From the NCBI GenBank assembly GCA_963850385.1, contig CAWKKS010000001.1, positions 435,001-499,000 on the forward strand: DNA of 64,000 nucleotides, in the 5' to 3' direction. The translations under genes were made by a program, and so were the position numbers. Positions 37,003 through 53,421 of this stretch are shown piece after piece (within the stretch, counting starts at the first letter, position 1; every line of letters starts with the position of its first letter). This stretch comes from Candidatus Dormiibacterota bacterium (GTDB lineage: Bacteria > Chloroflexota > Dormibacteria > Aeolococcales > Aeolococcaceae). The notes under the pieces are model-generated. The model saw nothing but the letters and a program-made list of their open reading frames with translations. It was not told where the DNA came from and searched no databases.

Positions 37003-38298
37003 ATGGCAGGCGGAGTGCGCCGCCACGCACCTCGAGGCTGGCGCGTCACCGGCGCCGTCGTTCTCAGCGTGGCGGTGACTGCGTGCGCGGGCACGCCCGC
37101 CGTCTCGAGCCCGTCCGGCGCCTCGAGCCCGTCCGGCGCGGCCACCCCGTCCGTGGAGGCCACTCCGCAACCGCTGTCGCTCCGCCTCGCGCTCGGTCAG
37201 ATGTTCGCAGCCTCGCTGTCCGGGACCGTCATCACCGACGGTCTGCGCCACCTCATCCTCGACGACAAGGTGGGCACCGTCCTGCTGTTCCGAGCCAACT
37301 TCGTCAACTCAGCCGGCCTGCGGCGCTGGACGGCACAGCTGCAGTCACTGGGGCGCGAGGCCGGCCTGCCCGCACCGCTCATGGTGACCACCGATGAGGA
37401 GGGTGGCACTGTCGACCAGGTCACCGACGGGTTGCGCCTGCTTCCCTCCGCGCAGGTCCTGGGCGCCCAGGGTGCACCGGGCGTGCGTCGCAACGTGGCG
37501 CAGATGGCCGGTGGGTTGCGCGCTGACGGGGTGGGGCTGGACCTGGCGCCGGTGGCCGACCTGCGCACCAACCCCGCCGACGGGGTCATCGGCAGCAGGT
37601 CGTTCGGGGCCGATGCGACCGTGGTCGGACCCCTGGTGGCGGCATACGTCCACGGACTGCACGACGCCGGCGTCGGGGCCACGCTGAAGCATTTCCCCGG
37701 GCTGGGCGGCGCCGGGGGAGACCCGCACACCGCCGTGGTCACCGACCCGGTGACGCCGGCCCAATGGGGCGCGACCACGGCGCGGAGCTTCGCGGCCGGC
37801 ATTGCGGCGGGTGCCGACGCGGTCATGACCACGTCGCTGCGCGTTCCCAACCTCGACGCCGCCGACCGTCCGGCGCTGCTGTCCCCGGTGGTCGTCGGCC
37901 TGCTGCGCGACGTCCTCCACTTCGACGGTGTCATCGTCACGGATTCACTGAGCATGACCGCAGTCGGAGAGCCGATGCCGCGCGCCGCGCTCGATGCGGC
38001 GTCGGCTGGGAATGACCTGCTGCTGATGTCGTCAGGCAGCACAGCGCTGGAGGACCAGGCGTACCAGCTGGTCCTCGCCGCCGTGCAGCGCGGTGTCATC
38101 CCGATGGCGCAGGTGCAGGCCTCGGCGCGACGCGTCCTCGCGCTGCACCTGCGCTACCCGGTGGCCGTGCCCGCCACGACGGCATGGGAACTGTCGCCCG
38201 GCTCGGCAAATGCGCTACGCCGCAACCGCGTCGTGAAACGCCTGGCTTACGGACCCGCCGCGCCCGATGCCGACGCCGCTGTCTCGTCGCGCCGGTGA
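37003..38298 (+). CDS. glycoside hydrolase family 3 (NagZ/LpqI-like beta-N-acetylhexosaminidase) lipoprotein
   Basis: Lipobox 'AVTACAG'; GH3 N-domain 'KHFPGLGG…D' motifs. Confidence 0.8.
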   Translation: MAGGVRRHAPRGWRVTGAVVLSVAVTACAGTPAVSSPSGASSPSGAATPSVEATPQPLSLRLALGQMFAASLSGTVITDGLRHLILDDKVGTVLLFRANFVNSAGLRRWTAQLQSLGREAGLPAPLMVTTDEEGGTVDQVTDGLRLLPSAQVLGAQGAPGVRRNVAQMAGGLRADGVGLDLAPVADLRTNPADGVIGSRSFGADATVVGPLVAAYVHGLHDAGVGATLKHFPGLGGAGGDPHTAVVTDPVTPAQWGATTARSFAAGIAAGADAVMTTSLRVPNLDAADRPALLSPVVVGLLRDVLHFDGVIVTDSLSMTAVGEPMPRAALDAASAGNDLLLMSSGSTALEDQAYQLVLAAVQRGVIPMAQVQASARRVLALHLRYPVAVPATTAWELSPGSANALRRNRVVKRLAYGPAAPDADAAVSSRR

Positions 38299-39860
38299 GG
38301 CATCCTCCGCGCCGGGCGGGAGACCAGGGTGTACGCCGCGCCGATCACGGCGATCAGCACCACGATGAGCAACGTCATCCAGTCGTAGTTGAAGAACGCC
38401 GCGCGCGGGCTGGTGATCCCCGACGGCAGCAGGATGTTGAAGAGCATGACCGCGAGCCACACGATGCCGGCGATCAGGATGGGGTACGCCCAGGCGCCAA
38501 GCCGGAACGCGCCCTGGGGAGTCCAGCCTCGGAGCCTGCCGATCAGTGCCGCGATCAGCACCAGCAGGAACGACAGGTAGATGCCCGACACCGCAAACGA
38601 GACCAGCAGGAAGAGGGCGTTGACGTTGGCCGGGATGGTGATGAAGCCGATGCTGATGTTGCTGCTCGGGGTGAACCGCGCGAGCAGCGCGAAGAGGGCC
38701 GGGATGATCGCGGCAACCACCAGAGCGTTGACCGGGGTGCGGAACCGCGGCGAGACGCGCGCCAGGGCCGAGCTGGCCGGCAGTGCGCGGTCGCGGGCAT
38801 AGGAGAAGATCAGCCGCGCCGCCGCGGCCTGGATGGCCAGCCCGCAGCTGAAGAACGCGAAGCAGACGACCAGCAGGGCGATGTCCTGGATGGCTTGTGA
38901 TGACACGTTGCTGCTGATCAGGAAGGGCACGCCGCCCGCCACGGTGTCCTTCAACCCGCTGGACGCGGCGGGCGTGGCCAGGATCAACGCCGCCACGAGG
39001 ATGAAGCTGGTGAGCCCGGCGACCAGGACGGAGGAGATGATCGCTCGCGGCACCCGGCGTGATGACTGCACCACCTCTTCGGCCACGTCGCCGGCCGACT
39101 CGAAGCCGTAGAAGATGTAGACGTGGGCGAGGACCGCCACGAAGGCGGCGCCCACCCACCAGTGGCCGCCGAAGTCAGCCCCAAGCGCGTTGCTCGATGC
39201 AACCTCGGCGCCCTGGGTGGAGAAGAGGAAGTCGAGGCCATGGTGGAAGCCGGCGATCGCCAGCAGGATGGCGATCCCGAAGGTTCCCAGCAGCTCGACG
39301 TACACGCCGATCTGTGAGATGCGGCCGAGGAAGTTGACCCCGACGATGTTGAAGACCAGCTGCAGGGCGATCAGCACCAGCGTGCAGATGAAGATCTGGT
39401 TGGGATCCGTGGGCACGATGCTGGTGTGGAAGAGGTTGTTGAGCAGCGGGCCGGCGTAGATGACCAGCCCGGTGTCCACCGACGCGACGGTCATGATCAG
39501 GGCCCACCCGTAGAACCAGCCCACCCACCAGCCGTACCGCGATCCGACCAGGTTCTTGGCCCATTGGAAGAGCGCGCCCGCGATCGGGAAGTGGCTGCCC
39601 AGCTCGGCGAAGGTCAGCGCCACGAACACCTGGCCGAGCACGACGATCGGCATCAGCCAGAGGTAACGCGGTCCGCCGCTCCCCAATCCGAGCACGAACA
39701 GCGAGTAGATGCCGACGACGGGCGAGATGTAGCAGAACGCGATCGCGAAGTTCTCGAAGAGGTTGAGAGCCCGCCTCAGCTCCTGCCGGTAGCCGAATTG
39801 AGCGAGGCGGTCGGCGTCAGCGGTGGCGCCGGGTTCGGTGGGCAGGCCGCCTGTGGTCAT
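38247..39860 (-). CDS. APC-family amino acid permease
   Basis: 12 TM helices; 'FAIAFCYISPVVGIYS…' amino-acid-permease motifs. Confidence 0.8.
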   Translation of the reverse strand: MTTGGLPTEPGATADADRLAQFGYRQELRRALNLFENFAIAFCYISPVVGIYSLFVLGLGSGGPRYLWLMPIVVLGQVFVALTFAELGSHFPIAGALFQWAKNLVGSRYGWWVGWFYGWALIMTVASVDTGLVIYAGPLLNNLFHTSIVPTDPNQIFICTLVLIALQLVFNIVGVNFLGRISQIGVYVELLGTFGIAILLAIAGFHHGLDFLFSTQGAEVASSNALGADFGGHWWVGAAFVAVLAHVYIFYGFESAGDVAEEVVQSSRRVPRAIISSVLVAGLTSFILVAALILATPAASSGLKDTVAGGVPFLISSNVSSQAIQDIALLVVCFAFFSCGLAIQAAAARLIFSYARDRALPASSALARVSPRFRTPVNALVVAAIIPALFALLARFTPSSNISIGFITIPANVNALFLLVSFAVSGIYLSFLLVLIAALIGRLRGWTPQGAFRLGAWAYPILIAGIVWLAVMLFNILLPSGITSPRAAFFNYDWMTLLIVVLIAVIGAAYTLVSRPARRMPHRRDETAASASGAAGP

Positions 39861-40042: not shown

Positions 40043-40756
40043 GTGTACCTCATCGAAGCGCGTCCGGTGCCGACCCCTGCTGACGCTGAGCGGTTGCTGG
40101 CGGATCTCTGGCAGCTCACCGCAGGGCGCGGTCTCGGCTTGTTCCTGCTGGGAGTCGGGGATGGGCTGATGCTGGGTGTCACCGCGCTGCATTCCGGGAT
40201 GGAGGAGGCGGCTGCCGCGACCATCGCGGACCAGTGCGGGGGGGCGGTCGAGCCCGGTTGGATGGTGCCGGAGATGGTTCGCGCCGCCGGCGACATCGCC
40301 GCGGTCAACCTGGTGCCCACCGAGCGTCACATCGACGTCGAGAGCCGGACGTACGGCTGGCAGCGGAGCGACCCTCTACGCGGGACGTTCCTGGCGCTCC
40401 GCCACCTCCCTCTCGGTGTCGTGGGCGGGGTGTCGCTGAGCCTGCGCGCGCTGCCCCGGCTCGGCTTCGCCCTGTCATTGGGAGCGTTTGTCGCCGGCCC
40501 GGCGGCGGCCGGCCATGTCGTGCGCGTGGCTGCGACATTCGGGGGGATCGGGGTGCGCCTGCGCCGCCCGCTCCTTCAACGCCGGGCGGTGCGACGAATG
40601 GTCGAGGGCAGGCTGCGCCGCCCCGCCGCCGTCCGGCGAGTCGAGGTGGTGGCCCGGTTCTGGCACCCACCGTACGCCTCGGACACCGGTCTCCAGGCAG
40701 CCCCGGACGCGACTGACAAGCCAGCCGGCTACCTGGGTACGGGGCGTGTCCCTTGA
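40043..40756 (+). CDS. hypothetical protein; first ORF ahead of the Tad-like cluster
   Basis: GTG start; 237 aa; no recognisable domain. Confidence 0.35.
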   Translation: MYLIEARPVPTPADAERLLADLWQLTAGRGLGLFLLGVGDGLMLGVTALHSGMEEAAAATIADQCGGAVEPGWMVPEMVRAAGDIAAVNLVPTERHIDVESRTYGWQRSDPLRGTFLALRHLPLGVVGGVSLSLRALPRLGFALSLGAFVAGPAAAGHVVRVAATFGGIGVRLRRPLLQRRAVRRMVEGRLRRPAAVRRVEVVARFWHPPYASDTGLQAAPDATDKPAGYLGTGRVP

Positions 40757-40874
40757 CGGTCCCGGTGCAGCCGCCTACCGTCTCCGTTCGCTTGGGTGAG
40801 CAGCGCAACCGTGCTGCTCGCCGGTGCGGCTGGCCCGAGCACACCGACGGGGGATGAGGGGGGAGGAAAGCGCC

Positions 40875-41504
40875 ATGAACCGGCGTCGCCTCGCAGCCGC
40901 GATCTTCTTCAGCGCCGTCATCGTGCTGGTGCTCGGTGTGATGGTGTTCCTCGAACAGTCAGGACGAGGGCAGACGGTCACCGTGCTGGTGCTGAAGCAC
41001 AACGTGCTCGCCGGCGACACCTACCGCGCCGACGACGTGTCGGCTGTGGCGGTGCGTGCGCCGGAGGGCGATTTCAACTACGAGCACCGCACCCCCGGGC
41101 AGTACGCGGCGCGCTACGCACAGAGCCTCCAGGTCAACGACATCCTGCGTGCCGATGACCTCGTCGACTTGAGTGCCCAGGTGGAGGTCGCGGTGACCAT
41201 GCAGGCCCCGCCGCCGTTGTCGGGGGGCGATCGCATCGATGTGTTCGCCACCATGGGCGGCGGCCGGCAGGCGAGGATCGGGCATGGCGTCACCGTCCTG
41301 GCCGCGTCCGGTGGGGCCCTGACCCTGCTGGTCCCCGTCGCGCAGGAGGAGGCATGGATCTCGGTGGCCTCCTCCAGCATCGCCCTGCACGCGGTGCGGG
41401 CAACGGGACCGGAGCCGGCTTCGCTGCAGCCGCTCAACCCCGACGACGCCGTGAGCAGCCTGTGCGGGTCGAGTTGCCTGTCGACCCAGTCCGGCGCACC
41501 GTGA
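40875..41504 (+). CDS. cpaB: Flp pilus assembly protein CpaB/RcpC-like
   Basis: Strong RBS 'gggggaggaaagcgccATG'. N-terminal TM, SAF-like segment, and C-terminal 'GDRIDVFAT…VTVLAA…LLVPVAQEEAW' typical of CpaB. Confidence 0.6.
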   Translation: MNRRRLAAAIFFSAVIVLVLGVMVFLEQSGRGQTVTVLVLKHNVLAGDTYRADDVSAVAVRAPEGDFNYEHRTPGQYAARYAQSLQVNDILRADDLVDLSAQVEVAVTMQAPPPLSGGDRIDVFATMGGGRQARIGHGVTVLAASGGALTLLVPVAQEEAWISVASSSIALHAVRATGPEPASLQPLNPDDAVSSLCGSSCLSTQSGAP

Positions 41505-42223
41505 CGACGCTTGTCGCCGTGTACACCACGCGCGCAGGCCAGACGTCGACGCACCTGGCGGCGTGCCTGGGGTGGACGCTCGCTGAGCGCGCCCCGGTCC
41601 TGCTCGTCGACTGCGACATGGAGGGTGGGACGCTTGCCGACCTCCTGCTCCTGCGTACCGGGGGCAGGGGCATCGGCAACTGCTTCGGCGACCGCCCCGC
41701 CACTCCCGGTGAGCTCACCGCCCAGGCGATCCCACACCCCGAACGCGAGTCGCTGCGCGTCGTGCCGGGCCTGGCGCGGAGCTACGGGTACGAGGTGGGG
41801 GAGTGCCTCAAGAAGCTTGCGCCGGCGCTGTCAGGGGCCGATGAGGAGGTGGTCATCGCCGATCTCGGTCACCCGCTGTCGCATCCAGGCCTGCGCTCGC
41901 CCCGGGCGGCCGCGGAAGCCATCTGCAACGTGTTCGGTCGTGCGTTCATCGTCGTGCGCGACGAGCCCGCTCTGTTGTCGCGAACCATCGCGGTATTGCA
42001 GGCGGCCCGACCGCGGCATGGCGAGCTCATCGTCTGCCATCAGCACGGCCGTGCCTACCGCCGCAGCATCCTCGACAGCCTGCAGCGAACCCTGCCCGAC
42101 ATGCCGGTGCGCGACGGGTGGGAATGGAACGAGGCGCGGGCGACGCGGATGACGGAGACGGGGGTGCCTGCCCTCCTGCCGGGTATCGACCGGGCCCTCA
42201 ACCTGCCGCTGGTGGCCGCCTGA
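41500..42223 (+). CDS. TadZ/CpaE-like ParA-fold protein with a degenerate Walker A
   Basis: GTG overlaps the cpaB stop (GTGA). 'MTTLVAVYTTRAGQTSTHLAACLG…LLVDCDMEGG' has a MinD/ParA-like layout, but the KGGxGK[ST] lysines are absent. Confidence 0.5.
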
Positions 42224-43635
42224 TGACCTCGGTGGCGCGGGCCCCCGCTCTCGACGAGGATGCCGCCGCACCGCGCCTCGACGAGGAGGTACCGGTCGCG
42301 CCCTGGCCACAGATCGCGTCCGAGGAGCTGGAGGTAGCCCAGGCCATCGCCGACAGCGTCATCCGCGAACGCGGCGGCGAGCCGGCATCGGTGCTCCACG
42401 AGGAACGGCTGCACCAGGACGTTGCCAGGGTCATCGAGCGCGCCGTCGCATCACCATCGACAAGCGGTCTGCCACTGGCGGTGGTCAGCGAGCTCGCCGC
42501 CAACCCCGAGTACCGCGACATCGCCCGGCGCAACGCGGCCATCCTCGCCTCGCACCTCTGGCCGCTGTCGCTGCTCATCTACGGCGCCGACCTGGAGAAC
42601 ATCACCTGCCTGGGTCACGACGAATGGTTGGTGAGCCTGGTGGGGCAGAAGCTGCTGTTGCGCGGGGGCAGCCCATTCCTGTCCGACGAGGACTGCCTCG
42701 AGTTCTTCCGCCGCGCCGTGCGGCTGCGCGGGGTCACCGGTGATCACAGCATCACGGACGCCGCGCCGATCGCCGAGGCGAACGTGGGAAGCGTGGCGCG
42801 ACTGTGCATCGCCAAGCGCCCCGCCGTCTCCGGCCAGGCGCTGCTGAAGGCTGCGGTCCGGATCCCGGCACGCTCGAAGGTGCGCGACCTCGCCGACTAC
42901 GTCCATGCAGGAGTCATGCCGGACGGCATGGCGCGGTTCCTTGAGGCGTGTGTGCACGCCCGCGTCAACATCATGATCGCCGGCGGGACGAGCACCGGGA
43001 AGACGACGCTCATGCGAGTGTTGTGCGGACTCACAGCCCCGACTGATCACCTCGTCGTGGTCGAGGACGGCGCCGAGCTTCACCTCGATCAATCGCGTGG
43101 CGACGGCCGCCCCTGGCACGCGCTGACGACGGCGCTGTCCACCATCCCGTCGGTGCGCGTGGAGACGGATTCCGGACAGCTCACCATGTTCGACCTGGTC
43201 CGTCACGCACTCCGTTTCCAGCCTGACCGGTTGCTCCTCGGCGAGTCGCGCGGCGAGGAGATGGCGGCTGTGTGCAAGGCGTTGATGACTGGTCACGACG
43301 GCTCGATGACGACAATCCACGCCGAGGACGCCGAGCTGGCCATCGACCAGGCTGTTCAGTACGTCATGGAGAACCCGCGCTTCGCGGGCAACGAGAAGAT
43401 GGCCAAGCGGGTGGTCGAACACGCCATCCACCTGGTGGTCCACCTCGCCAACCAGGCCGGCCGGCGACGCGTGACCGGTGTGCTGGCCGTAGAGCGCGGC
43501 GGCAACCATAAATGGATCTACCGCCGGGCTGACCACGGTGGCTGGCAGCGCATGACCGACATGGTGGGCAACCTCCATCGCCTCGGGCCCCGGTTGCGCG
43601 GGCGCTTTCCCGACGACGAGGTCCCAGCGGTATGA
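42223..43635 (+). CDS. tadA: Tad/CpaF-family secretion ATPase (TadA)
   Basis: 'IMIAGGTSTGKTTLMRVL' Walker A, 'VVVEDGAEL', 'LGESRGEE', His box; ATG overlaps the upstream stop (TGATG). Confidence 0.85.
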   Translation: MTSVARAPALDEDAAAPRLDEEVPVAPWPQIASEELEVAQAIADSVIRERGGEPASVLHEERLHQDVARVIERAVASPSTSGLPLAVVSELAANPEYRDIARRNAAILASHLWPLSLLIYGADLENITCLGHDEWLVSLVGQKLLLRGGSPFLSDEDCLEFFRRAVRLRGVTGDHSITDAAPIAEANVGSVARLCIAKRPAVSGQALLKAAVRIPARSKVRDLADYVHAGVMPDGMARFLEACVHARVNIMIAGGTSTGKTTLMRVLCGLTAPTDHLVVVEDGAELHLDQSRGDGRPWHALTTALSTIPSVRVETDSGQLTMFDLVRHALRFQPDRLLLGESRGEEMAAVCKALMTGHDGSMTTIHAEDAELAIDQAVQYVMENPRFAGNEKMAKRVVEHAIHLVVHLANQAGRRRVTGVLAVERGGNHKWIYRRADHGGWQRMTDMVGNLHRLGPRLRGRFPDDEVPAV

Positions 43636-44558
43636 GTGCGGCCGGGGCAGGCCTCTCCACGGTCCAGTTCATCGGCCTGTTGATCGTCATCGCCTGCGCC
43701 GCCGGGGGCGCGGCGGCAATCCTCGACCTCGACGTCGACATCAGGGTCGTGCGCCGTCCGCTGCGCGCGTGGCGGTTTCTTGAGCAGGAGCGAGACCTGG
43801 CCGCCAACCTTGGCTGGCGATGGCCACGATGGGTCGCGGTCCGGTGCGCGCTCCTCGCCGTGTGCATCGGCCTCGGCCTGTGGTCACGCGTTTGGGTGCT
43901 CGCCCTGGTCGGTGGTATCGCCGGCACGCTCGGGTTTCGGTTCGCCATCGCCGGTCGGGCAGCCAACCGGCGACTGCGCGTCGAGCGCGCCTTCTTGGCG
44001 CGGCTTCGCGACCTCCGCGATCGCATGGCCGTCGGCAACCAGTCCCTCGACACAGCGCTCCAGGAGATAGCTCGCCAGCCCGGACCGGAACTCGAGTACG
44101 TCCTGGCGCCACTCGCCGGCGGCGGGTCGACGGCCGATAACATCGTCGCCGTTGGCACGCGGGCGCGATCCCCTGTCGTGGAATACGCCTGCGCAGTCCT
44201 GCTGTGGACGCGGAGTCGAAGCATGGATGCCCTCATCGAGGCCATCGACCAGCTTCTGCTCCCCGTGGGCGCCGCTCAGCTGGCCGTGCAGGAGGAGGCG
44301 TGGGTCACCCTGACCCAGCAGCGCTCGGTGACGGTGGCGATGTCGGTGTTGATGGTGGTGATGTTCGCCGTGGTCATCCGCGTCGACAGCTTCCGCCTCT
44401 TCTACCAATCGCTCCAGGGCAACGTGGTGCTGGCGCTCGTCGTGGTGTTGTTCGCCGGGCTGGTGGGACTGCTCGGCGTGATCGTGCGGGTGCGCAGCTG
44501 GACGCGATGGGACCTGCGTCGCCTCGCGGATGAGCAGGAGCGGCTCGGTGCTCAGTGA
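43632..44558 (+). CDS. tadB: TadB-like (T2SS-F domain) inner-membrane protein
   Basis: ATG overlaps the tadA stop (ATGA); TM helices flank a cytoplasmic T2SSF-like region. Confidence 0.65.
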   Translation: MSAAGAGLSTVQFIGLLIVIACAAGGAAAILDLDVDIRVVRRPLRAWRFLEQERDLAANLGWRWPRWVAVRCALLAVCIGLGLWSRVWVLALVGGIAGTLGFRFAIAGRAANRRLRVERAFLARLRDLRDRMAVGNQSLDTALQEIARQPGPELEYVLAPLAGGGSTADNIVAVGTRARSPVVEYACAVLLWTRSRSMDALIEAIDQLLLPVGAAQLAVQEEAWVTLTQQRSVTVAMSVLMVVMFAVVIRVDSFRLFYQSLQGNVVLALVVVLFAGLVGLLGVIVRVRSWTRWDLRRLADEQERLGAQ

Positions 44559-45447
44559 CCTCTGGCCCTACGCGCTGTTGACCGTTGCTCTGGTCGGGAC
44601 GTGGGCCTTCGTACTCGCGCGACTCGGCTACCTCACGGCCTCGGACGTGCGCGCCTGGCGCCGCATCGCCGCGCTCCGCGGCTATGGCGGCGCTCAGAGC
44701 CGGTGGGAGCGAGCGGCCGACCGGAGTCCGGTGATCGGGCGTCTCCGAGACGAGCTCGACCTCCGCCGTCTCCTCGCCATCGCCGATCGCGACGAATCGG
44801 ACGCCTCGTTCCTCGCGCGCACGGCCTTCCTTGCGCTGTCCGTGTTCGTTGTGATCCTCACCATCGACCTGGCGGCCCGGGTGGGTGGCGCAGACGTCCC
44901 CATCCCGCCTGCCTTGGCATTGCTTGCCGCCGCGCTCGTGGTGCTGGGGCGCTTCAGTGCGCTCCGCGCGTCCGCGCAGCGGCGCCAGGACCGCGCCGGG
45001 CGCGCCCTGGGCGACATGATGATGATGGTGGCCGTGATGACCGACGGCCGTGGACTTCAACTCGACGACTCTGTGCGAATCCTCTCTCGCTGCGCGACGA
45101 CGGCAGACCTGCGAACCCTCGTCGACGGTGGCTGGCGGCGGCTGATCGCGGACCCGCCGAAGAACACCGTCGACCTCTACTCCCGGATTGCGGCCGAGTT
45201 CCGCATCGAGCAGTTCGCGCTCGTGGCGGACGCGCTGGCCACGACCAACGTTGGGATCGCCGAGCGCGACACGTACACACGCACCGCGCAGGCGGTCTAC
45301 CAGCGACGCCTCGCAGAAGCTCGGGCGCGCGCCGCTCGAGCGCGGATCCTGGTGACACTTCCCGTCGCGGGCATGCTGATCCCGCTGCTGCTCCTGCTGG
45401 GCGCGCCGACGTTCCAGAGCATCAGTGCCGGCCTGGGGGGCGGCTGA
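44530..45447 (+). CDS. tadC: TadC-like (T2SS-F domain) inner-membrane protein
   Basis: Second T2SSF-type membrane protein, overlapping the tadB 3' end (alternative GTG start at 44548). Confidence 0.6.
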   Translation: MSRSGSVLSDLWPYALLTVALVGTWAFVLARLGYLTASDVRAWRRIAALRGYGGAQSRWERAADRSPVIGRLRDELDLRRLLAIADRDESDASFLARTAFLALSVFVVILTIDLAARVGGADVPIPPALALLAAALVVLGRFSALRASAQRRQDRAGRALGDMMMMVAVMTDGRGLQLDDSVRILSRCATTADLRTLVDGGWRRLIADPPKNTVDLYSRIAAEFRIEQFALVADALATTNVGIAERDTYTRTAQAVYQRRLAEARARAARARILVTLPVAGMLIPLLLLLGAPTFQSISAGLGGG

Positions 45448-45450
45448 GCT

Positions 45451-45835
45451 GTGTCACGCCGTGCTCTCGTCTGTGCCGCGCTCCTTGCGTCGACAGCCGC
45501 GCTGGTCGCGGTGGTGGGCTGGCCGGATCTCGGGAGAAGCCTTGGCCTGCTCACCGGCCGTGACGTGACGTCGGACAGCGAGTCCGCATTCGTGGTGGCC
45601 GTCTGCTGGGTCGCGTGGCTGCTGCTGAGCGTGGTGTGCTTCGCCAGGGTGGGTGGATTTGGGGCCCGCTCGCGACTTCGACCGGCGGGGCACGGCCCGC
45701 ACGCTGGCATGGAGCTTGTTGGTGCTGCTCGTCGGCGCCACAACGCTGATCGCCGGCATGGCCAGGCACAGCAGCTACCGCGTCTGTTGTGCATCACCGG
45801 TGACCGCTGAACAGGCTGAACGACTTGTCCACTGA
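45451..45835 (+). CDS. small multi-TM protein, apparently frameshifted at a G-run
   Basis: GTG start 4 nt after the tadC stop. Frame 45451 encodes 2 TM helices and then nonsense; frame 45653 continues with the TM 'LAWSLLVLLVGATTLIAGMA' and ends at 45835, 1 nt before the next start. Confidence 0.3.
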
Positions 45836-45836
45836 G

Positions 45837-47366
45837 GTGGCGGGCTTCGCCTTCATCGTGCTGCTCCGCGACGAGCTCGAGGCACGCGGGCTGGCCGGCC
45901 TTCTCGAGAGCGTCGCTCGACCTGCGCGCGAGGTCGCCGCGACCTTCCTGGTGCCCGAAGTGCGCGGCCGGGACTTCTTCGCCGCGACGGCGCGTCAGGC
46001 CGAGGTCGACCGGTGGTGGGGCAGGCATGTCCCCGAGGACGCCGTGCCGGTGTACCTCATCTGCCACGAGGATGGCCTCGCGGGCTGGCTGCGGGGACTC
46101 GACGGCGTCTTCATGGTGGCCGCCCCGTCCGAGGCCGCGGCTGTCTACACGGAGTGGACGGTCGTCGATGCGCAGCCGGCTGAAGCGCCGCTGGCCCTCG
46201 CCCAGGCCGCCGTCGAGCGGTTCGGGGTGCCCGACGACTCGCCCGACACCGCGCCCTGGGCCGTCTTCGAACGACGCGATGTACGCCTGGTGGCCGACCT
46301 CCGCGCGGGGCTGACGTCCGGGTCCGGCTCGCGACCGGAGTTTCCCCCGCTGCTACACGTCGACGGGATCCGCGCCCCGACCACCGCGGGGCTCCGCGAC
46401 ACCGTCGGGCCTCATCCACTCGACCTGCTCGTCGCCGAGAGTGCGCAGACCCGAGCCGAGCGCGCTCCATGGACGCAAGCCGCCCCCGAGGTGGCACCGG
46501 CGTGGACCGGGAGACTCCTGCGCCCACGGCTCCCGTCACTGCGGCGCCACCACGCGAGCCCGACGATCACCGATGCGGAGCTGGCCGCCCTTCTCGTCGC
46601 CCGTGCGCCAAGCCTGGTGGTGATCGGGTCTCGCAAGGGAGGCGTTGGGAAGACCAGCCATGCGGCTGGCATTGCCATCGCTGCCGGGAGTGTTCTCGAC
46701 ACGGTGGGCCATCGCGCCGCGATCGTCGACGCCAACGTCGCCAACCCGGATGCTTGGGGGCAGCTCGACCTGCCCCCCACAGCGCCGGGCGTCCGCGACG
46801 TGGTGACCGCCCTCACCAACGGCGAGGAGCCGCCTTCGCCGATCCATGCGGTGACGCCTGCGCTGGCCTGCTATCCCGAGCGGCGTGACGGCGTCGAGTA
46901 CAGCCGCACCGACGTGCAGCGATTCGCCGCACACCTGCGTCAGCGGTACTCCTTCGTGGTCGTCGACATGAGCAATCGCCTACCGGACCCGACCGGTGGC
47001 CCGGAGGCGGCGGCCGCGGCGTTCTGGTTGGCTGAGGCCGACGCCCTGGTGTTGCCGACCGGGTCGAGCAAGCAGGACTTCAACGGCGTGCTTGATTACC
47101 TCGACGTGCCCGACCTTCCGCCCACCGTGGTGCCGTACATCGCGTCCTCCGCCCGTCGCAACCGCCGCCACCCGGTGACGCGTCAGTACCTCGAGACCAT
47201 CGGTCCGCGTGTGTGCGCCATCGTCGAGATCCCCGATGAAGCAGACGACGTGCGTTTCGCCGGGATGGAGGGCACGCCGGTGCAGGATGTGTCGCCACGA
47301 ATGCGCGCCGCGTACCGTGCGCTCACCGCCGCGGTCGGCCGCCTGCCCAAGGGCGCCCACGCGTGA
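45837..47366 (+). CDS. CpaE/ParA-family ATPase with a ~280-aa N-terminal extension
   Basis: C-terminal half has a bona fide deviant Walker A 'VIGSRKGGVGKTSHAAG' and 'VVVDMS'. The N-terminal domain is uncharacterised (possibly receiver-like, as in CpaE). The ORF track's TTG at 45825 is an alternative start. Confidence 0.65.
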   Translation: MAGFAFIVLLRDELEARGLAGLLESVARPAREVAATFLVPEVRGRDFFAATARQAEVDRWWGRHVPEDAVPVYLICHEDGLAGWLRGLDGVFMVAAPSEAAAVYTEWTVVDAQPAEAPLALAQAAVERFGVPDDSPDTAPWAVFERRDVRLVADLRAGLTSGSGSRPEFPPLLHVDGIRAPTTAGLRDTVGPHPLDLLVAESAQTRAERAPWTQAAPEVAPAWTGRLLRPRLPSLRRHHASPTITDAELAALLVARAPSLVVIGSRKGGVGKTSHAAGIAIAAGSVLDTVGHRAAIVDANVANPDAWGQLDLPPTAPGVRDVVTALTNGEEPPSPIHAVTPALACYPERRDGVEYSRTDVQRFAAHLRQRYSFVVVDMSNRLPDPTGGPEAAAAAFWLAEADALVLPTGSSKQDFNGVLDYLDVPDLPPTVVPYIASSARRNRRHPVTRQYLETIGPRVCAIVEIPDEADDVRFAGMEGTPVQDVSPRMRAAYRALTAAVGRLPKGAHA

Positions 47367-47806
47367 GCAGCGCACGCGGCCTGCTCACCCGGCGCAGTCG
47401 GGACGACGTCAGCCGCGCGCAGCGGGTTGAGCGTGTGCTCGCGCTCGTCGAGCGCTTCGTGTTCGACCTCGGAATGCTGATCGCGGGCGAGCCCACCGAG
47501 CTGCGTGCCTACGTCGATGCCCGCGTGGTCGAACGCCTCGAGCAGTCGGTGCAGCCGGCGCTCGACGCCGGCGCGCTGGCCCGGCCTGACTTCGGCGAGT
47601 ACGCCGAGGTCCGCATCGAAGGCGACCTGCTCGACCTGTCCCACCCGGTCAGCACACTGGTGGAGTTCGACGACTGCTCCAGCCTGACGCGCGCCGGCGG
47701 GTTCGCGCCCGCACCCCACCGGCGGCGGATGCGCTTGCGGCTGCTGCTCGACGCCGCGCTGACGCGGGTGCTCGACCACCATCTCGAACCGGCTGGACTG
47801 TCGTGA
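47363..47806 (+). CDS. hypothetical protein (Tad-cluster accessory)
   Basis: GTG overlaps the upstream stop (GTGA); 147 aa. Confidence 0.4.
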   Translation: MSSARGLLTRRSRDDVSRAQRVERVLALVERFVFDLGMLIAGEPTELRAYVDARVVERLEQSVQPALDAGALARPDFGEYAEVRIEGDLLDLSHPVSTLVEFDDCSSLTRAGGFAPAPHRRRMRLRLLLDAALTRVLDHHLEPAGLS

Positions 47807-48378
47807 CCCCAAACCTGGTCGACCGCGACCCGCAGAACCTGCTGGTGCCGCTGGGTGGGATGGCGCCGGCACGGGCTGAGCGCCGCCGCGCGGTGCGACG
47901 GTGGTGGCCGGACACGTCAACGAGCCTTCTCGGCCTCGGAGTGGTCGGTGGAGCCATCGGGGTCGGCCTCCTGCTCGCGCCCGCCCCGGACGCTGTCGCG
48001 CTGATGGGCGACCATCTGCAGGTCGGCGGCATGGTGCTCTCGGCAGTCGCCTCCTCCGGCGACCCCCGCACGCTCCGCTTCTCGGGTGACGCCTCCTACG
48101 TGCTGGTCCTGGGCCCGGACGGGCCCTCCCGGGCCGCGGCGGTGTGGACGACTGGTGGCACGGTGAGCTCTGGTGTCTGCGCTCTTCACGGTGATGGCTC
48201 GCGCCTGGTCGACGATTGCTCATTCACCTCGCGTGCGGGTCGGTTCTCGTCGGTCGACGTGCTCGACACCGCGCTCGGTCCGCGCTGGGAGCGCACCTAC
48301 GACGACGGTGCGCGGGTGACCATCCCGGTCTCGGCTGGCGGGGGCGCGGTGCCCGTGCCATTTCCGCTGGGCCATTGA
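47803..48378 (+). CDS. hypothetical single-TM protein (Tad-cluster accessory)
   Basis: GTG overlaps the upstream stop; 'RRWWPDTSTSLLGLGVVGGAIGVGLLLA' TM helix. Confidence 0.4.
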   Translation: MTPNLVDRDPQNLLVPLGGMAPARAERRRAVRRWWPDTSTSLLGLGVVGGAIGVGLLLAPAPDAVALMGDHLQVGGMVLSAVASSGDPRTLRFSGDASYVLVLGPDGPSRAAAVWTTGGTVSSGVCALHGDGSRLVDDCSFTSRAGRFSSVDVLDTALGPRWERTYDDGARVTIPVSAGGGAVPVPFPLGH

Positions 48379-48455: not shown

Positions 48456-49214
48456 ATGAACGCCGGCAACGTCCTGCTCGTCCTCGCCGTCTTCCTCGCC
48501 AGCGCGGTGGAGATGGTCGAGGCTGCCACCATCGTGGTGGCGGTCGGCATCACCCGCGGCTGGCGCGCCGCGCTGCTCGGCGTCGCGGTGGGACTTGGCT
48601 CGCTCGCAGTCCTCGTCGCGGCGCTCGGACCAGCGCTCGCGGCCATCCCGATCGGCGCTCTGCGCCTCGCCGTGGGCGGTCTCCTGCTCGTGTTCGGGCT
48701 CGGCTGGCTCCGCAAGGCGATCCTTCGCGCGGGAGGGGTGAAGGCTCTGCATGACGAACGGGAGAGCTTCCGCGAGCAGCGCGAACGCTCCCGAGCGGCT
48801 GCGGTGGCCGCCGGCGGCCTCGACACCTACGGATTCACGGTGAGCCTCAAGGGTGTGCTCCTCGAGGGTCTCGAGGTCGTCTTCATCGTGGTCACCTTCG
48901 GTGCCAACCAGGGACGAGTCGGCCTCGCCGCGCTCGGCGCCGCCGCCGCCGTGCTGGCGGTCCTCGCCGGGGTGCTGGTGGTGCGAGCGCCGCTCTCGCG
49001 CGTTCCCGAGAACACCATGAAGTTCGCGGTCGGCACCCTGCTCACCTCATTCGGCACGTTCTGGGGCGCGGAGGGCGCTGGGGTCAACTGGCCCGGCGGT
49101 GACGTCGCGCTCGCCGCCATCATCCCGGGGACGCTGCTGGCGGCATCGCTCATGGTCGTGGCGCTGCGCCGGGGCGCGCCGGTTCGGCTGGTATCCCGGC
49201 GCGGCGTGGCCTGA
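48456..49214 (+). CDS. integral membrane protein of unknown function
   Basis: 6 predicted TM helices in Ala/Gly/Leu-rich segments. Confidence 0.5.
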   Translation: MNAGNVLLVLAVFLASAVEMVEAATIVVAVGITRGWRAALLGVAVGLGSLAVLVAALGPALAAIPIGALRLAVGGLLLVFGLGWLRKAILRAGGVKALHDERESFREQRERSRAAAVAAGGLDTYGFTVSLKGVLLEGLEVVFIVVTFGANQGRVGLAALGAAAAVLAVLAGVLVVRAPLSRVPENTMKFAVGTLLTSFGTFWGAEGAGVNWPGGDVALAAIIPGTLLAASLMVVALRRGAPVRLVSRRGVA

Positions 49215-49483: not shown

Positions 49484-50521
49484 TCAGGCCTTCGGAACAG
49501 CGCCCGTCGCCGGGTCCACCTTGCGCGCACGACTGGGCGCGACGCGCGGCGGTTCGCCCGGCATCTTCGGGTACTGCGGCGGCCAGGGTGCGTCGACCAG
49601 TCCAGCAGCGGTGTCGCGCTGGTGCAGCGCGAGCAGCGGCGCCAGCGACTGGGGTGCCGCATCCAGCAGTGCCCACGGGTCGCCATCGCGCGCGACGCGC
49701 GCGGGAACGGTGGCGATGGTGAGCCCGTCGGGGTGGACCGCGTCGAGCTCCTCCCAGGCAAACGGCGTCGACACCTGGGCACCCGGGCGGGCGCGAACCG
49801 ACCAGGCGCCGAAGATCGTCTTGTGCGGGGCGTTCTGGTTGAAGTCGATGAAGACCCTGCGGCCGCGCTCCTCCTTCCACCATGCCGACGTGATCAGGTC
49901 CGGGCGCCTTCGCTCCAGCTCGCGCGCCGTTGCCACCGCTGCCGAGCGCACCTCGTACGCCGTCCAGCGGGGTTGCAGGCGAACGTACACGTGGATGCCG
50001 CGGTTGCCGGTCGTCTTGGGCATGCACGCCACCCCGTGGTCCTGCAGCAGCCCCCGCACCTCCCGCGCCGCCTCCTGCACCATGCTGAACGTGACCCCGG
50101 GTGTCGGATCGAGGTCGATGCGCAGCTCATCCGAGTGCCCTGGATCGCTGGCTCGCGACGGCCACACGTGAAATCCCAGGCAGCCGAGGTTGACGGCCCA
50201 CAGCACGTGCGCGAGATCGGCGGCCACCAGCGCCTGCGACGTCGTCCCATTCGGTGTGCTGACGGTGGTGGTCTCCAACCAGTCCGGGCGTGACTCGGGC
50301 ACCCGCTTCTGGAAGAAGGAGGAGCCGCCAGCCCCGTTGGGAAATCGTTGCAGGAGCACCGGCCGGCCGCCCATGGCCCGCATCAGCGGCTCCTCGACGG
50401 ACTGGTAATAGCGCACCAGGTCGAGCTTGGTGTCGCCGCGCTCGGCGAAGAAGACCTTGCCGGGGCTGGTGATCGACACCTCGCGCCCGGCCGCCTCGAC
50501 GATCACCGCGTCGTCACCCAT
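49484..50521 (-). CDS. NHEJ LigD polymerase/primase domain (PolDom) protein, standalone
   Basis: 'TSPGKVFF…TKLDLVRYY…LLQRFPNG…WAVNLGCLGFH…ELRIDLDP…KTTGNRGIHVYV' LigD-Pol motifs. No ligase or Ku adjacent. Confidence 0.8.
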   Translation of the reverse strand: MGDDAVIVEAAGREVSITSPGKVFFAERGDTKLDLVRYYQSVEEPLMRAMGGRPVLLQRFPNGAGGSSFFQKRVPESRPDWLETTTVSTPNGTTSQALVAADLAHVLWAVNLGCLGFHVWPSRASDPGHSDELRIDLDPTPGVTFSMVQEAAREVRGLLQDHGVACMPKTTGNRGIHVYVRLQPRWTAYEVRSAAVATARELERRRPDLITSAWWKEERGRRVFIDFNQNAPHKTIFGAWSVRARPGAQVSTPFAWEELDAVHPDGLTIATVPARVARDGDPWALLDAAPQSLAPLLALHQRDTAAGLVDAPWPPQYPKMPGEPPRVAPSRARKVDPATGAVPKA

Positions 50522-50563: not shown

Positions 50564-51254
50564 TCAGGCGCGGTAGGCGAAGCCGCGGCACACGGTCGGG
50601 GTCTGCAGCAGCGCCGCCGCGAGGCGAATGGTGACGGGTGCGCCCGGTCGGATCGTGGATCCGCGTGCCACGCCACCACCGACCAGCGTGCTGCCGACGA
50701 AGCAGGCCGCCACCACCTCGGCAGCCACCGTCGCCGTGGTGGCGACAGTGACGTCCACGGCAGGCGCGACAGCATCGGGGACGAACACCGCGCTCCGCAC
50801 CGCCAGTGGGTTGGCCGCCGCCGCCGACGGCAGCCCGCCGGCGCTCGCTGTGACCGACCCGATGCTGTCGTCCGCGGGCACGGCGAGCCGCACCATCGCC
50901 GCCTCAGCCTCCTCGGCTCCGAGCGCGGCAATCGTGGCGTCACCTTGCACATCGGACCGCCCGTTGGCGCTGTGGGCGACCACCCTCACCCGCACCGCCA
51001 CCCGTGGCGTGGTGTCGTTGACCACCACCACGAAAGCCACTGTCCCGGACGGCGTGGGCGCCGTGACGGTGTCGGTGATCAGTGTTGTCGACGACCCGGT
51101 GGTGGCCGGCGCCGGCGAGACCGTCGCCGCGCTGAACGGCGTGGAGTGGGCGCCGCCGCTGATCGGTGGCCGGCCCGCGTCGCCGCAGCCGCCCAGCAGG
51201 ACGATCGCGGCGGTCGCGGTCGACCAGTGACGCCCGCGATGCCGCCCGCTCAAC
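50564..51254 (-). CDS. lipoprotein of unknown function
   Basis: TTG start overlaps the upstream stop (TTGA). Signal + lipobox 'AAIVLLGGC'; Ala/Val/Thr-rich. Confidence 0.4.
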
Positions 51255-53421
51255 TGACCACTGTCGCCATGTTGTCGATGTAGCTGAAGGACCGGGTGAA
51301 GTCTGCCCACGAGAACACCTTGCGGGTGGCGGTGTAGGGGTCGTTGATGATCACCTGCTGGGTGCCGAAGTCAATGCCGACAAGGGCGAACACATGGTTG
51401 TTGAGGACATACTGGACGGTGCGACCGTCCCACGCCGTGTAGGTGCGTGGAGCCGCATCTGCCATGTTGTACGAGCCCTCGACGGCTGCCGGGTAGCCGG
51501 ATACCACAAGGTCGAAGAGCTGGCTGACGCTCCACTGCTCCTTGCCGATGGCGCCGTGGCCGAGGTATTGGGCCATGCGCGCCAGGGGCGGGTAATAGAT
51601 CCCATACCCGGTCGCGTTCCATTCGGAGGCGTTGACATTGCCGACGAACGCCGTGTACGGGTCGCCCCACTGCACGATGTTCCCCGCCGCATCCTTCGCC
51701 GCGGGACGGAGATCGGCTCCCCAGTAAGCCAACTCCCAGTCCTGGCTGACGCTGGTCCCGCGGGCGGCAAGCACCATCTGCATGGTGGCAGCCTCGCAGT
51801 CGAGCGGATGCGCCTGCTTGGTCATGGGCACGTTGAGGAGGTACAGCCCGCCCACGCCTGCGGCATAGGCAGCGGAGGCGTCGCTCGACAGGGGTTGCGG
51901 TGCGGCCTGCGGATCCGTGGGGTTGAGCAGCGCGACGTCACGGACGATGTCCCAGCTCCCCCAGTCAGTCCAATGCGCCCACGAGGGGTGGACGTACCCG
52001 CCGGCGAACGACACCACCGTCCCGCTCCTGGCCACGCTGTACCAGCCGAAGCCGGTCTGATGCAGGGCGTGGTACATCGGCCGGCCGGGGTTGGGTGTGG
52101 CGTCACCGAGAGGTGGCGCGGCACCGAAGGCATGGGTGCGACCGACATCGTCCATCGCCCATCCACCGTCCGGTGTGCCCCTGGCGTTGCTGTGGATGAC
52201 CAGCCCCCGGTAGATGTCGAAACCCTGCATGTATGGTGGCCCACCGATGTCGGGCGCCGCGCCCCACGCGTGAACACCGCCGAATCCGTCGAGGACGTAC
52301 CCGGCCGAGCCGTCCGCGATCCCCTGGGAGTCGTGAGCGGTCACCACCAACGACCGCGCGATGTCCCAACCCCAGTACACCGGGGTGGGAGCTGCCGGCG
52401 CCGCGCCCCACGCGTGGACGGCCCCGAAGCCATCAAGCGTCCAGCCGCCGCTGCCATCCTCGCGCACCTGCACTGCGCGGGCGATGTCCCACCCCGGCCA
52501 GTACGGTGCGCCGCTGCCGTTGACGGGTATCTGCCCGAAGGGGCGCAGACCTCCGAAACCATCGAGGGTGACGCCGCCCGAGGGCCTCTGCGCAGCTGCT
52601 GATATGGCGGCGGCGGCGGCGCTCCGAGGCTGCGGGGTGGGCTGCCCGGCGTCGCTCCGCAACAGGGCGACGTCCCGCTGGATGTCCCACGCGCCCCAGT
52701 CCGGGTACGCGGACCAATACGGCTGCACGGCGCCCCACACCTGCATGGCGCCCCAGTGACCGACCGTGTACCCAGTCGCAGCTGTGCCGCGCATCTTCAC
52801 CCACAGCGCCTTCCCGGCCGGCACCACCGGGGCGGCCTTCGCGGCTGCGGCGCCGAACGCGTGCAGCGTGTCGTCGCTGTACAGGATCCAGCCCCCATCC
52901 GGGGCCCCGCCGGTGTCGTAGTCCACCATCAGGCTTCGGGCGATGTCAGTTCCCGGGTAGGGGCCGGCGAGCGCCGGCGCGCCGCCCCACGGGTGGATTC
53001 CTCCCAACCCGTCGAGGAGGTACCCCTGGCGGCCGTCGACCTCACCATCTGTTCCGCGTGACGTCAGCACCATGTCGCGAGCGATGTCCCAGCCACGCCA
53101 GTACGTGGGCGTCGCCACTGTCGAGGCGCCTCCCCAGGAGTGCACGGCGCCGAAGCCATCGAGCGTCCAACCACCGCTCCCGTCGGCGCGAACCACGACA
53201 GAACGGGCGATATCCCACCCCGGCCAGTAGGGCGCGTTCACGGAGTTGATCGAGGCGCCCCCGAAGGTGTGCAGGCCGCCATAACCATCGAGCACCACCC
53301 CGCCCGGTTGCGGTGCGGCGGCCGCGCCGGCCGCATCCAGCGCGACAGGCGGCGCCAGCAGCGAGGCTGCCACGACCAGCAACGCAGCCATGCGGCGCCA
53401 CTGCCGGCGCCGTGGGGACAT
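51250..53421 (-). CDS. secreted protein: ~10 tandem 'LDGFGG-H-FG…YW-GWDIAR' repeats plus a C-terminal peptidase C39-like domain
   Basis: Signal 'MAALLVVAASLLAPPVALDAAGAAAA'. Repeats e.g. 'WTLDGFGAVHSWGGAS…YWRGWDIARDMVL'. C-terminus 'PLDCEAATMQMVL…NNHVFALVGID…IINDPY' has the Cys/His/Asp pattern of a C39-like peptidase. Confidence 0.65.
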   Translation of the reverse strand: MSPRRRQWRRMAALLVVAASLLAPPVALDAAGAAAAPQPGGVVLDGYGGLHTFGGASINSVNAPYWPGWDIARSVVVRADGSGGWTLDGFGAVHSWGGASTVATPTYWRGWDIARDMVLTSRGTDGEVDGRQGYLLDGLGGIHPWGGAPALAGPYPGTDIARSLMVDYDTGGAPDGGWILYSDDTLHAFGAAAAKAAPVVPAGKALWVKMRGTAATGYTVGHWGAMQVWGAVQPYWSAYPDWGAWDIQRDVALLRSDAGQPTPQPRSAAAAAISAAAQRPSGGVTLDGFGGLRPFGQIPVNGSGAPYWPGWDIARAVQVREDGSGGWTLDGFGAVHAWGAAPAAPTPVYWGWDIARSLVVTAHDSQGIADGSAGYVLDGFGGVHAWGAAPDIGGPPYMQGFDIYRGLVIHSNARGTPDGGWAMDDVGRTHAFGAAPPLGDATPNPGRPMYHALHQTGFGWYSVARSGTVVSFAGGYVHPSWAHWTDWGSWDIVRDVALLNPTDPQAAPQPLSSDASAAYAAGVGGLYLLNVPMTKQAHPLDCEAATMQMVLAARGTSVSQDWELAYWGADLRPAAKDAAGNIVQWGDPYTAFVGNVNASEWNATGYGIYYPPLARMAQYLGHGAIGKEQWSVSQLFDLVVSGYPAAVEGSYNMADAAPRTYTAWDGRTVQYVLNNHVFALVGIDFGTQQVIINDPYTATRKVFSWADFTRSFSYIDNMATVVS

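Follow-up and report, generated by a model that had tools for sequence, protein, structure and literature searches.

The stretch of DNA considered here (the window) comprises 64,000 nucleotides of contig CAWKKS010000001.1 (positions 435,001 to 499,000 of the forward strand; assembly GCA_963850385.1) from a member of Candidatus Dormibacterota: abundant, uncultured bacteria of soil and permafrost whose cell biology is hardly known. Between positions 40043 and 48378 the window carries ten co-directional open reading frames (ORFs) – hereafter the module – whose products include a Tad-type secretion ATPase, a pair of putative platform proteins and two ParA-like proteins. An initial annotation, made from the sequence alone, had described a Tad/Flp-type (type IVc) apparatus with neither pilin nor prepilin peptidase in cis, and had proposed that the pilin is very small, divergent or unlinked, or else that the apparatus secretes or assembles something other than a pilus. 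The genes of the module are as follows.

40043-40756, + strand: ORF1, 237 aa, with no Pfam or NCBIfam match
40875-41504, + strand: CpaB/RcpC-like bitopic protein, an N-terminal transmembrane (TM) helix followed by a SAF-like start
41501-42223, + strand: TadZ/CpaE-like ParA-fold protein, 240 aa, with degenerate P-loop (TTRAGQTST) and no receiver domain
42223-43635, + strand: CpaF/TadA-type secretion ATPase, 470 aa (Pfam T2SSE, 99 bits)
43632-44558, + strand: TadB-like inner-membrane platform protein, about five TM helices and one cytoplasmic helical domain
44548-45447, + strand: TadC-like inner-membrane platform protein, about four TM helices
45451-45835, + strand: small three-TM protein, about 122 aa, with conserved C-terminal tail (Y-x-V-C-C...A-E-x-L-V-[HR])
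45837-47366, + strand: CpaE-like ParA/MinD-type ATPase, 509 aa, with deviant Walker A motif SRKGGVGKTS
47363-47806, + strand: p147, a soluble protein of 147 aa with no family match, coupled by GTGA to both flanking genes
47803-48378, + strand: p191, a bitopic membrane protein with no PDB or family match

Analysis of GC content at third codon positions (GC3) by frame, together with the ORF listing, shows the gene run to be unbroken, and the majority of its ORFs have overlapping stop and start codons. As read from the sequence, GTGA junctions lie at 41501-41504, 47363-47366 and 47803-47806, a TGATG junction at 42221-42225 and an ATGA junction at 43632-43635; the tadB-like and tadC-like genes overlap by 11 nt (44548 / 44558), and at the TGA-GCT-GTG junction (45445-45453) stop and start are separated by a spacer of 3 nt (45448-45450). 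The junctions are thus as the initial annotation had read them, but the chain numbers ten ORFs rather than nine, and the first of these is not the CpaB-like gene: ORF 40043-40756 has no family match, and the CpaB/SAF-like gene (40875-41504) follows it after a gap of 118 nt, its start preceded by a strong ribosome-binding site, GGGAGGAAAG. A scan for promoters and terminators gave background levels only, and Rfam models found two tRNAs in the window and nothing else (no riboswitch upstream of the operon).

Compared with solved structures, the ATPase matches Caulobacter CpaF best (98 bits, E 6e-27), followed by VirB11 (63 and 50 bits), archaeal GspE2 (60 bits) and FlaI (48 bits). Walker A, Asp box, Walker B and His box are all intact, and the catalytic residues – the Walker A lysine, the Asp-box glutamate, the Walker B glutamate and arginine, and the His-box histidine, with roles as described for such ATPases (PMC11300603) – align with those of CpaF. 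NCBIfam scores lie close together (TadA-conj 134, TrbB 129 and VirB11 125 bits): all equivalog cut-offs are missed, those of these three models by far, and the best match is titled 'TadA family conjugal transfer-associated ATPase'. Among matches on plasmids the best are annotated as CpaF and are 27-31% identical. Looked up by exact sequence, the ATPase of the window had no record. The possibility that the enzyme is nearer to VirB11/TrbB than to other T2SSE clades was rejected on the scores against solved structures (CpaF 98 vs VirB11 63/50 bits). By its motifs the ATPase is CpaF-like and catalytically intact, in keeping with the Tad-type core, with a TadA/CpaF ATPase, that had been claimed.

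The two genes directly downstream of the ATPase gene encode the platform pair. Neither the TadB-like nor the TadC-like protein gives a match to Pfam T2SSF, to NCBIfam or to PDB sequences, family profiles included. With 49 TadB-like sequences as the profile, a search of 1.84 billion representatives yielded only 87 proteins, which form a closed family from which no tail leads on to the huge T2SSF superfamily. Among the distant members, P0475 (E 9e-6) scores above the Pfam T2SSF gathering threshold (30.6 vs 25.2 bits), and the hhalign alignment of the TadB-like profile with it extends over 225 columns (95.8% probability, E 7.8e-9). The AlphaFold (AF2) model of the TadB-like protein (predicted local distance difference test, pLDDT, 77.6) has SpoIIIAB (6bs9) as its top solved fold match (probability 0.97, TM-score 0.57-0.63, Foldseek E 0.73). 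Weak Pfam Spore_III_AB matches were obtained for the TadB-like protein of the window and for one distant family member, and the soluble domain of SpoIIIAB structurally resembles the cytoplasmic domain of GspF/PilC (PMC10790770). From the intermediate sequence and the SpoIIIAB/GspF-like fold of the model we conclude that the TadB-like protein is a candidate, very remote, T2SSF-type platform protein.

Evidence for the TadC-like protein comes from profile comparison: hhalign against P0475 and against a diverse TadB-like profile gave P ~4.4e-4 in the expected register. A shallow, low-diversity TadB-like alignment gave no significant result with the TadC-like protein and showed no paralogy, and the profiles of both module proteins against the canonical TadB and TadC of Dormibacterota were not significant either, the register being sensible. 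The TadC-like protein is probably a paralogue of the TadB-like one. Of the labels TadB and TadC, as first given, the former stands for a candidate remote T2SSF protein and the latter for one weakly linked to that family; neither has a direct match to Pfam T2SSF.

Both ParA-like proteins bear the P-loop motifs first quoted for them, 'YTTRAGQTST' in the product of 41501-42223 and 'KGGVGKTS' in that of 45837-47366. In the 240-aa protein, P-loop residues T10, R11, G13, Q14 and S16 are invariant across 30 species; since the lysine-less P-loop does not vary, it is a conserved, pseudo-ATPase feature rather than a product of decay. The motif departs from the xKGGxGK[ST] pattern of ParA/MinD deviant-Walker-A ATPases, and the protein is probably catalytically dead. 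Aligned by hhalign with the ParA domain of a canonical CpaE (P0375; E 9.8e-5), it places 'TTRAGQTST' opposite 'AKGGVGKST', and PDB matches below threshold (Soj, FleN, MinD, Wzc) cover the same region. An atypical Walker A motif with low ATPase activity is general among TadZ proteins (PMC6668835).

The SRKGGVGKTS P-loop of the 509-aa protein, on the other hand, is invariant and matches that pattern. Residues 257-483 align with the ParA domain of the same CpaE (hhalign, 95.6% probability, E 1.2e-8), MinD (4v03) matches at the P-loop, and weak MinD/ParA matches appear in Pfam and NCBIfam; the record of the source contig includes a 509-aa product. Its N-terminal domain has no family match and is not a receiver domain; its length is about 255 aa and not the ~280 aa first given. 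Neither ParA-like family detects the other by profile. Through their alignments to canonical CpaE, both can be taken as CpaE/TadZ-type proteins, one with a dead and the other with an intact P-loop, which bears out the two paralogs originally proposed.

For the CpaB-like protein three weak signals agree in register: TIGR03177 pilus_cpaB (E 1.5e-4), Pfam SAF (E 0.047) and hhalign against a canonical CpaB (P0372; P 9e-4). ORF1 has homologs in only 15 loci, all from the clade of the window; in other clades its position is held by a Peptidase_M23 gene (seen in L063 and L065). The p191 protein, in an alignment of 30 species, consists of a cytoplasmic part with the motif DRxPQxLPVPLGG, one TM helix and an extracytoplasmic domain of about 130 aa, which is predicted to be all-beta, has two invariant cysteines and ends in the motif IPVPFPLG[RH]; a single-sequence AF2 model was too poor for use (pLDDT 42). 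The cytoplasmic, N-terminal LPVPLGG and the extracytoplasmic, C-terminal IPVPFPLG[RH] are alike.

The small three-TM gene is frameshifted in the window. As read, its ORF spans 45451-45810; a shift to frame +1 near 45640-45670, within the homopolymer-rich stretch TTTGGGGCCC, carries the gene to 45835 and recovers the Y-x-V-C-C...A-E-x-L-V-H tail of 13-14 relatives (family alignment and three-frame translation), and tblastn matches are spread over two frames. The shift may have arisen in assembly, or else it is a genuine inactivating indel. The small multi-TM ORF of the initial annotation is this frameshifted reading. In monoderm tad loci, pilin and pseudopilin genes usually follow tadC; this small post-tadC protein was rejected as a pilin on account of its three hydrophobic segments and the lack of a G/XXXXEY motif.

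The claim that pilin, TadE-like pseudopilin and prepilin peptidase are missing in cis was borne out over the whole window. No small ORF with a class III (G/XXXXEY-like) signal was found in the locus or elsewhere in the 64 kb (pattern and hydrophobicity search of all stop-to-stop ORFs of at least 30 aa), and a genuine Flp from a relative (L001) had no tblastn match in the window. None of the ten products matches Pfam TadE, and no window ORF has a class-III-like N-terminus. Peptidase_A24 and TadE were both absent from the scanned window ORFs, which included all predicted polytopic membrane ORFs, and Peptidase_A24 was absent from the annotated contexts of the relatives' loci as well.

Flp pilins do occur elsewhere in the phylum. 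A search with the L001 Flp returned many, some of them named Dormibacteria, although flp lies within 10 kb of the module in only one (L001) of 62 module loci. An orphan flp, with no tad genes around it, is found on OY970355.1, a chromosome that also bears a module locus (L025). In other cases flp belongs to a canonical locus, flp-cpaB-tadB-tadC-cpaE, which adjoins rplA-rplK-nusG and encodes CpaB (SAF/RcpC), TadB (T2SSF), TadC (T2SSF), one or two Flp and three CpaE-like receiver-ParA proteins:

L079, 9055-19765: canonical locus
L081, 5174-15899: canonical locus

The second of these, contig JBOHUD010000075.1, comes from the same metagenome-assembled genome (MAG) as module locus L005 (JBOHUD010000068.1), which belongs to the clade of the window (86% ATPase identity); a locus of the first type shares a single contig with a TadB-like module protein (998,844 bp, the longest contig for that type of locus). 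Because module and canonical locus occur in the same MAG or contig, such genomes hold two Tad-type gene sets, and in relatives the module is a second, paralogous Tad-type system beside the canonical one. Within about 10 kb of the canonical locus there is neither a T2SSE ATPase nor an A24 peptidase (precomputed Pfam; tblastn with the module ATPase). An unlinked pilin, one of the options first raised, thus fits the relatives, in which flp sits at other loci in the phylum; for the window itself the search covers 64 kb. The peptidase gene tadV may lie away from the other tad genes and serve more than one system; such unlinked peptidases are well known, whereas scattered Tad loci have been described as very rare (PMC6668835).

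Other genes accompany the canonical locus. A Cys-rich protein of 244 aa is encoded divergently beside flp in L079 (14135-14869); the window contains a homolog (23345/23480-24148, + strand; 38.6% identity, E 5e-43) with no Pfam family and no adjoining flp. Directly upstream of the canonical cpaB-tadB-tadC of L079, five tandem paralogs of about 215 aa (1540-7277) share a near-identical N-terminus (RSKRSLR-ALVLGAAVAGTALVGWGGLAAW-AYT-N-GN) and are followed by an S26 signal-peptidase-like gene, an arrangement that resembles a TasA/SipW-type fibre set.

The module itself is phylum-wide. More than 460 close homologs of the ATPase were found, from Candidatus Dormibacteraeota/Dormibacteria MAGs wherever the source is named. 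Taking one genome per GTDB species gave 61 species-level loci with ATPase identities of 64-90%, nearly all labelled Dormibacterota; over both searches the homologs are 64-100% identical. For seven loci (L015, L018, L031, L043, L047, L048 and L053), which share the gene order and have ATPases 69-75% identical, the taxon given is Saccharimonadales, Acidiferrales, Binatia, Actinomycetes or Chloroflexia, probably through wrong assignment of Dormibacterota MAGs. An ordinary actinobacterial Tad locus, the outcome that the initial annotation had named as its refutation, was rejected: the lineage is Candidatus Dormibacterota, to which the homologs belong as well.

Gene presence was scored by tblastn in 53 loci with adequate sequence. 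The TadZ-like protein, ATPase, TadB-like and TadC-like proteins, the ~500-aa ParA-like protein and p191 are each present in 53 of 53, the CpaB-like protein in 52 and p147 in 42, the latter falling below tblastn detection in those clade B loci that are free of VirB4 and of the type IV coupling protein (T4CP). Flanks are syntenic within the sub-clade of the window, with MarR-MFS-aldo/keto reductase genes upstream and an OFeT_1-like permease, a 71-aa protein and LigD downstream. Pairwise ratios of nonsynonymous to synonymous substitution rates (dN/dS), calculated for eight relatives of the clade without type IV secretion genes and with dS near saturation, are 0.1-0.45 in nearly all comparisons: 0.09-0.15 for the ATPase, 0.11-0.30 for the TadZ-like, TadB-like and TadC-like proteins (0.11-0.22 for the TadZ-like alone), 0.10-0.40 for ORF1, 0.29-0.43 for p147 and 0.29-0.60 for p191.

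Genes around the locus are of housekeeping type, the closest tRNAs are more than 7 kb away, and no integrase or relaxase was found among the neighboring genes scanned. An origin of the window copy as an integrative conjugative element (ICE) or genomic island was rejected given the syntenic housekeeping flanks and the lack of an adjoining tRNA. Conservation, synteny, housekeeping neighbors, distant tRNAs and dN/dS together indicate a vertically inherited chromosomal module that is under selection, and neither an island nor a wreck. On the reading preferred below, the locus is a second copy of the Tad (type IVc pilus) inner-membrane motor, carried on the chromosome, passed on vertically, strongly diverged and specific to Candidatus Dormibacterota.

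In the relatives, the module frequently sits among genes of a type IV secretion system (T4SS). Both VirB4 and the T4CP flank it in 25 of 43 fully flanked loci, the T4CP alone in two, and neither in 16. VirB4 lies upstream in 26 of 47 relatives whose sequence extends far enough on that side, and the T4CP is found in 30 of 52 whose sequence does so downstream, directly after p191 in L001, L010, L012, L013 and L058. In clade A (for example L063 and L065) the upstream genes, in the same orientation, encode a 92-aa two-TM protein, a weakly TrbL/VirB6-like polytopic protein, a VirB4-family ATPase (94-103 bits with TraC/VirB4 models) and an M23 peptidoglycan hydrolase; a VirD4-like coupling protein (up to 119 bits with CD1115/TraG/VirD4 models) is encoded downstream. 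Coordinates in these two loci are:

L065, 3161-8578 and 17879-19150: T4SS genes
L063, 3200-8499 and 16370-17458: T4SS genes

No relaxase Pfam match occurs within 10 kb in annotated relatives, and VirB4, the T4CP and the other T4SS genes of relatives have no match anywhere in the 64-kb window. This is best explained by loss of the T4SS part from the neighborhood in the sub-lineage of the window, with the motor retained under purifying selection. The suggestion that the apparatus 'secretes or assembles something else' gains concrete support from the VirB4/VirB6-like/M23/VirD4 setting of the module in most relatives.

Taking these observations together, we tentatively favor – as a reading that falls somewhat short of probable – a divergent Tad-type motor, second to the canonical one, for which unlinked Flp would supply the pilins and which was ancestrally coupled to a monoderm-type T4SS. 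A hexamer of the CpaF-type ATPase would dock on the TadB/TadC-like platform pair, no role other than ATPase docking being known for pairs of this kind (PMC10790770, PMC11300603). The two ParA/CpaE-type proteins, one with a dead P-loop and the other with an intact P-loop and a novel N-terminal domain, would organize the complex, and the CpaB-like protein, the three-TM protein and bitopic p191 would face the cell envelope. ATPase and platform would polymerize unlinked Flp subunits after cleavage by an equally unlinked peptidase, and the filament would be extended, perhaps also retracted, by the same ATPase and platform. Pilin and peptidase would be missing in cis because their genes are located elsewhere in this phylum. 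A shared ATPase is attractive because the two loci are complementary, the flp/tadBC locus being without an ATPase and the ATPase locus without a pilin. The minimal monoderm Tad machine consists of ATPase, TadB, TadC, Flp and TadZ (PMC11300603). Because the module is often joined to VirB4/VirB6/M23/VirD4 genes, filament or motor may serve cell-cell contact for T4SS-mediated transfer.

Several points weigh against unlinked Flp as the substrate. For the genome of the window, of which 64 kb is visible, neither pilin nor peptidase has been seen, and, as noted, flp is near the module in a single locus of 62. The canonical flp locus has a TadB/TadC platform of its own, so that Flp may not need the module, and a third locus could hold a canonical tadA and tadV. 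The TadB-like and TadC-like proteins are so remote from T2SSF (87 representatives among 1.84 billion) that the handling of pilins by them is an assumption. Lastly, the tight and frequent VirB4/VirD4 linkage fits a role in type IV secretion equally well or better.

Such a role defines the strongest rival, which we consider unlikely although it retains a sizable chance of being correct: that the Tad-derived ATPase and platform work independently of any pilin, co-opted as an energizing or assembly sub-complex of a monoderm-type T4SS or other envelope conduit. The ATPase would then play a VirB11-like part on a membrane platform of its own and with no Flp filament, and in the lineage of the window the T4SS would be encoded elsewhere or the role would have changed. 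The gene order argues for this (VirB4, VirB6-like and M23 genes directly upstream in the same orientation, with the T4CP downstream, in 25 of 43 fully flanked loci, and the T4CP immediately after p191 in several loci of the wider clade of the window), as do the lack of a pilin-like gene in all 62 module loci save L001, the separate TadB/TadC pair that accompanies flp, and the best fold match of the TadB-like protein, SpoIIIAB, which is GspF-like and works in a pilin-less channel. The title of the best NCBIfam match of the ATPase, which refers to conjugal transfer, points the same way, and TadA is the type IV filament (TFF) ATPase nearest to TrbB/VirB11 (PMC11300603). Yet this ATPase is clearly closer to CpaF than to VirB11 (98 vs 63 bits), the T4SS genes have no relaxase match nearby, and purifying selection persists although VirB4 and the T4CP are missing within 10 kb in 16 of 43 fully flanked loci and within 64 kb in the window. 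We know of no T4SS that has T2SSF-type platform proteins, which also counts against it.

In a specific form of this idea, the module would be the conserved core of a novel, hybrid envelope apparatus in Dormibacterota, with the pilin-free ATPase and platform operating within a chromosomal, relaxase-less monoderm T4SS (VirB4/VirB6-like/M23/VirD4); we regard it as doubtful, with a small but real chance, and under it the genome of the window may encode the T4SS at another place.

Far less probable is a decaying remnant of a Tad/T4SS island, or cargo of an integrative conjugative element, without function in this genome. The frameshift in the small three-TM gene, the lack of the relatives' T4SS genes and the loss of the Walker lysines in one ParA-like protein could be taken as signs of decay; but the nine other genes are intact, with dN/dS of 0.1-0.45 nearly throughout among eight relatives (p191 to 0.60), the lysine-less P-loop is invariant across the phylum, the one frameshift, being in a homopolymer-rich stretch, could stem from assembly, and the housekeeping flanks are syntenic, with no adjoining tRNA and no integrase or relaxase among the scanned neighbors. 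The least credible explanation, to which we give almost no weight, is a self-contained Tad locus whose in-cis pilin is too divergent to recognize (the small post-tadC protein, p147 or p191, for example): a small hydrophobic protein does occupy the post-tadC position, where C. acnes, for example, has its pilin genes (PMC5696575), but this protein spans the membrane three times and lacks a conserved Gly-x4-Glu site, p147 lacks a hydrophobic segment, the cytoplasmic leader of p191 is about 45 residues long and has no class-III motif, and bona fide Flp with a canonical G/XXXXEY is encoded elsewhere in the same phylum.

Compared with canonical Tad/Flp systems (tad of A. actinomycetemcomitans, cpa of Caulobacter and the minimal monoderm form), the preferred second Tad-type motor shares a CpaF/TadA-type ATPase with all catalytic motifs, two platform genes after the ATPase gene, TadZ/CpaE-like ParA-type proteins and a CpaB-like bitopic protein encoded upstream; like monoderm Tad it has no secretin (PMC11300603, PMC6668835). 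It differs in the absence of flp, tadE/F and tadV in cis, in platform proteins that fall below Pfam T2SSF, in a TadZ-like protein without Walker lysines and receiver domain, in a second CpaE-like protein with a novel N-terminal domain, in the extra conserved three-TM protein, p147 and p191, and in coexisting with a canonical flp-tadB-tadC in relatives. The parts list of the module thus resembles the minimal monoderm Tad machine, but several marks of membership (pilin, pseudopilins, peptidase, platform) are missing or weak.

The closest arrangement described in a monoderm is that of the linear plasmids of Cutibacterium acnes, where a tad locus lies directly downstream of the conjugation genes VirB4, TcpC and FtsK-like (PMC5696575); as in the clade A loci, monoderm-type Tad adjoins VirB4-type conjugation genes. 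The C. acnes locus, however, is plasmid-borne and has TadE-like pilin and pseudopilin genes after tadC (PMC5696575), whereas in Dormibacterota the locus lies on the chromosome throughout the phylum and has no pilin, and its copy in the window has no T4SS genes. The SpoIIIAA/SpoIIIAB sporulation channel of Bacillus likewise combines a T2SSE-family ATPase with a GspF/PilC-like membrane protein and no pilin; the fold match is weak (Foldseek E 0.73), no other SpoIIIA component was detected, and, unlike SpoIIIA, the module has two platform paralogues, as in Tad, and an ATPase nearest to CpaF. In Patescibacteria, a neighboring lineage, monoderm-type VirB4/VirB6/T4CP sets (MPF-FATA-like; MPF, mating-pair formation) are chromosomal, vertically conserved and relaxase-poor, and are thought to be co-opted for non-conjugative roles (PMC12102498). 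They resemble the T4SS half of the clade A loci, but the window has no T4SS genes, and the terms Tad, TadA and CpaF are absent from the text of PMC12102498. A literature search found no paper on Dormibacterota pili or T4SS.

The ten-gene module is a marker of the phylum, with eight core genes in 53 of 53 adequately covered loci and its ATPase in all 61 species-level genomes sampled, and most of it goes undetected by standard domain models. It illustrates the divergence that Tad platform proteins can reach next to a CpaF-type motor that has stayed conserved. Two aspects of this lineage-specific, divergent, probable second Tad-type motor are of particular interest, the ATPase-less canonical flp locus and the recurrent joining to T4SS genes; the natural split in relatives between an ATPase-less flp/tadBC locus and a pilin-less ATPase locus poses the question of whether one motor serves two platforms. 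If the repeated physical association between a type IV filament motor and monoderm T4SS genes has a function, the two would make up a hybrid machine of a new kind, with a bearing on the exchange of secretion ATPases between filament and secretion systems; the hybrid reading, should it be true, would add a previously unreported class with components of both type IV filaments and type IV secretion.

Elsewhere in the window, about 1.7 kb (17497-19162) contains no clear gene by GC3, the longest ORF there (17221-18735, - strand) having no Pfam match. The immediate neighbors of the module are:

38247-39860, - strand: amino-acid permease, divergent from the run, to its left
48456-49214, + strand: OFeT_1-like permease, to its right

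The latter was rejected as a prepilin peptidase. Shortly downstream of the locus lie a gene with a LigD primase-polymerase domain (49484-50521, - strand) and one for an 860-aa protein with a Peptidase_C39_2 domain (51250-53832, - strand).

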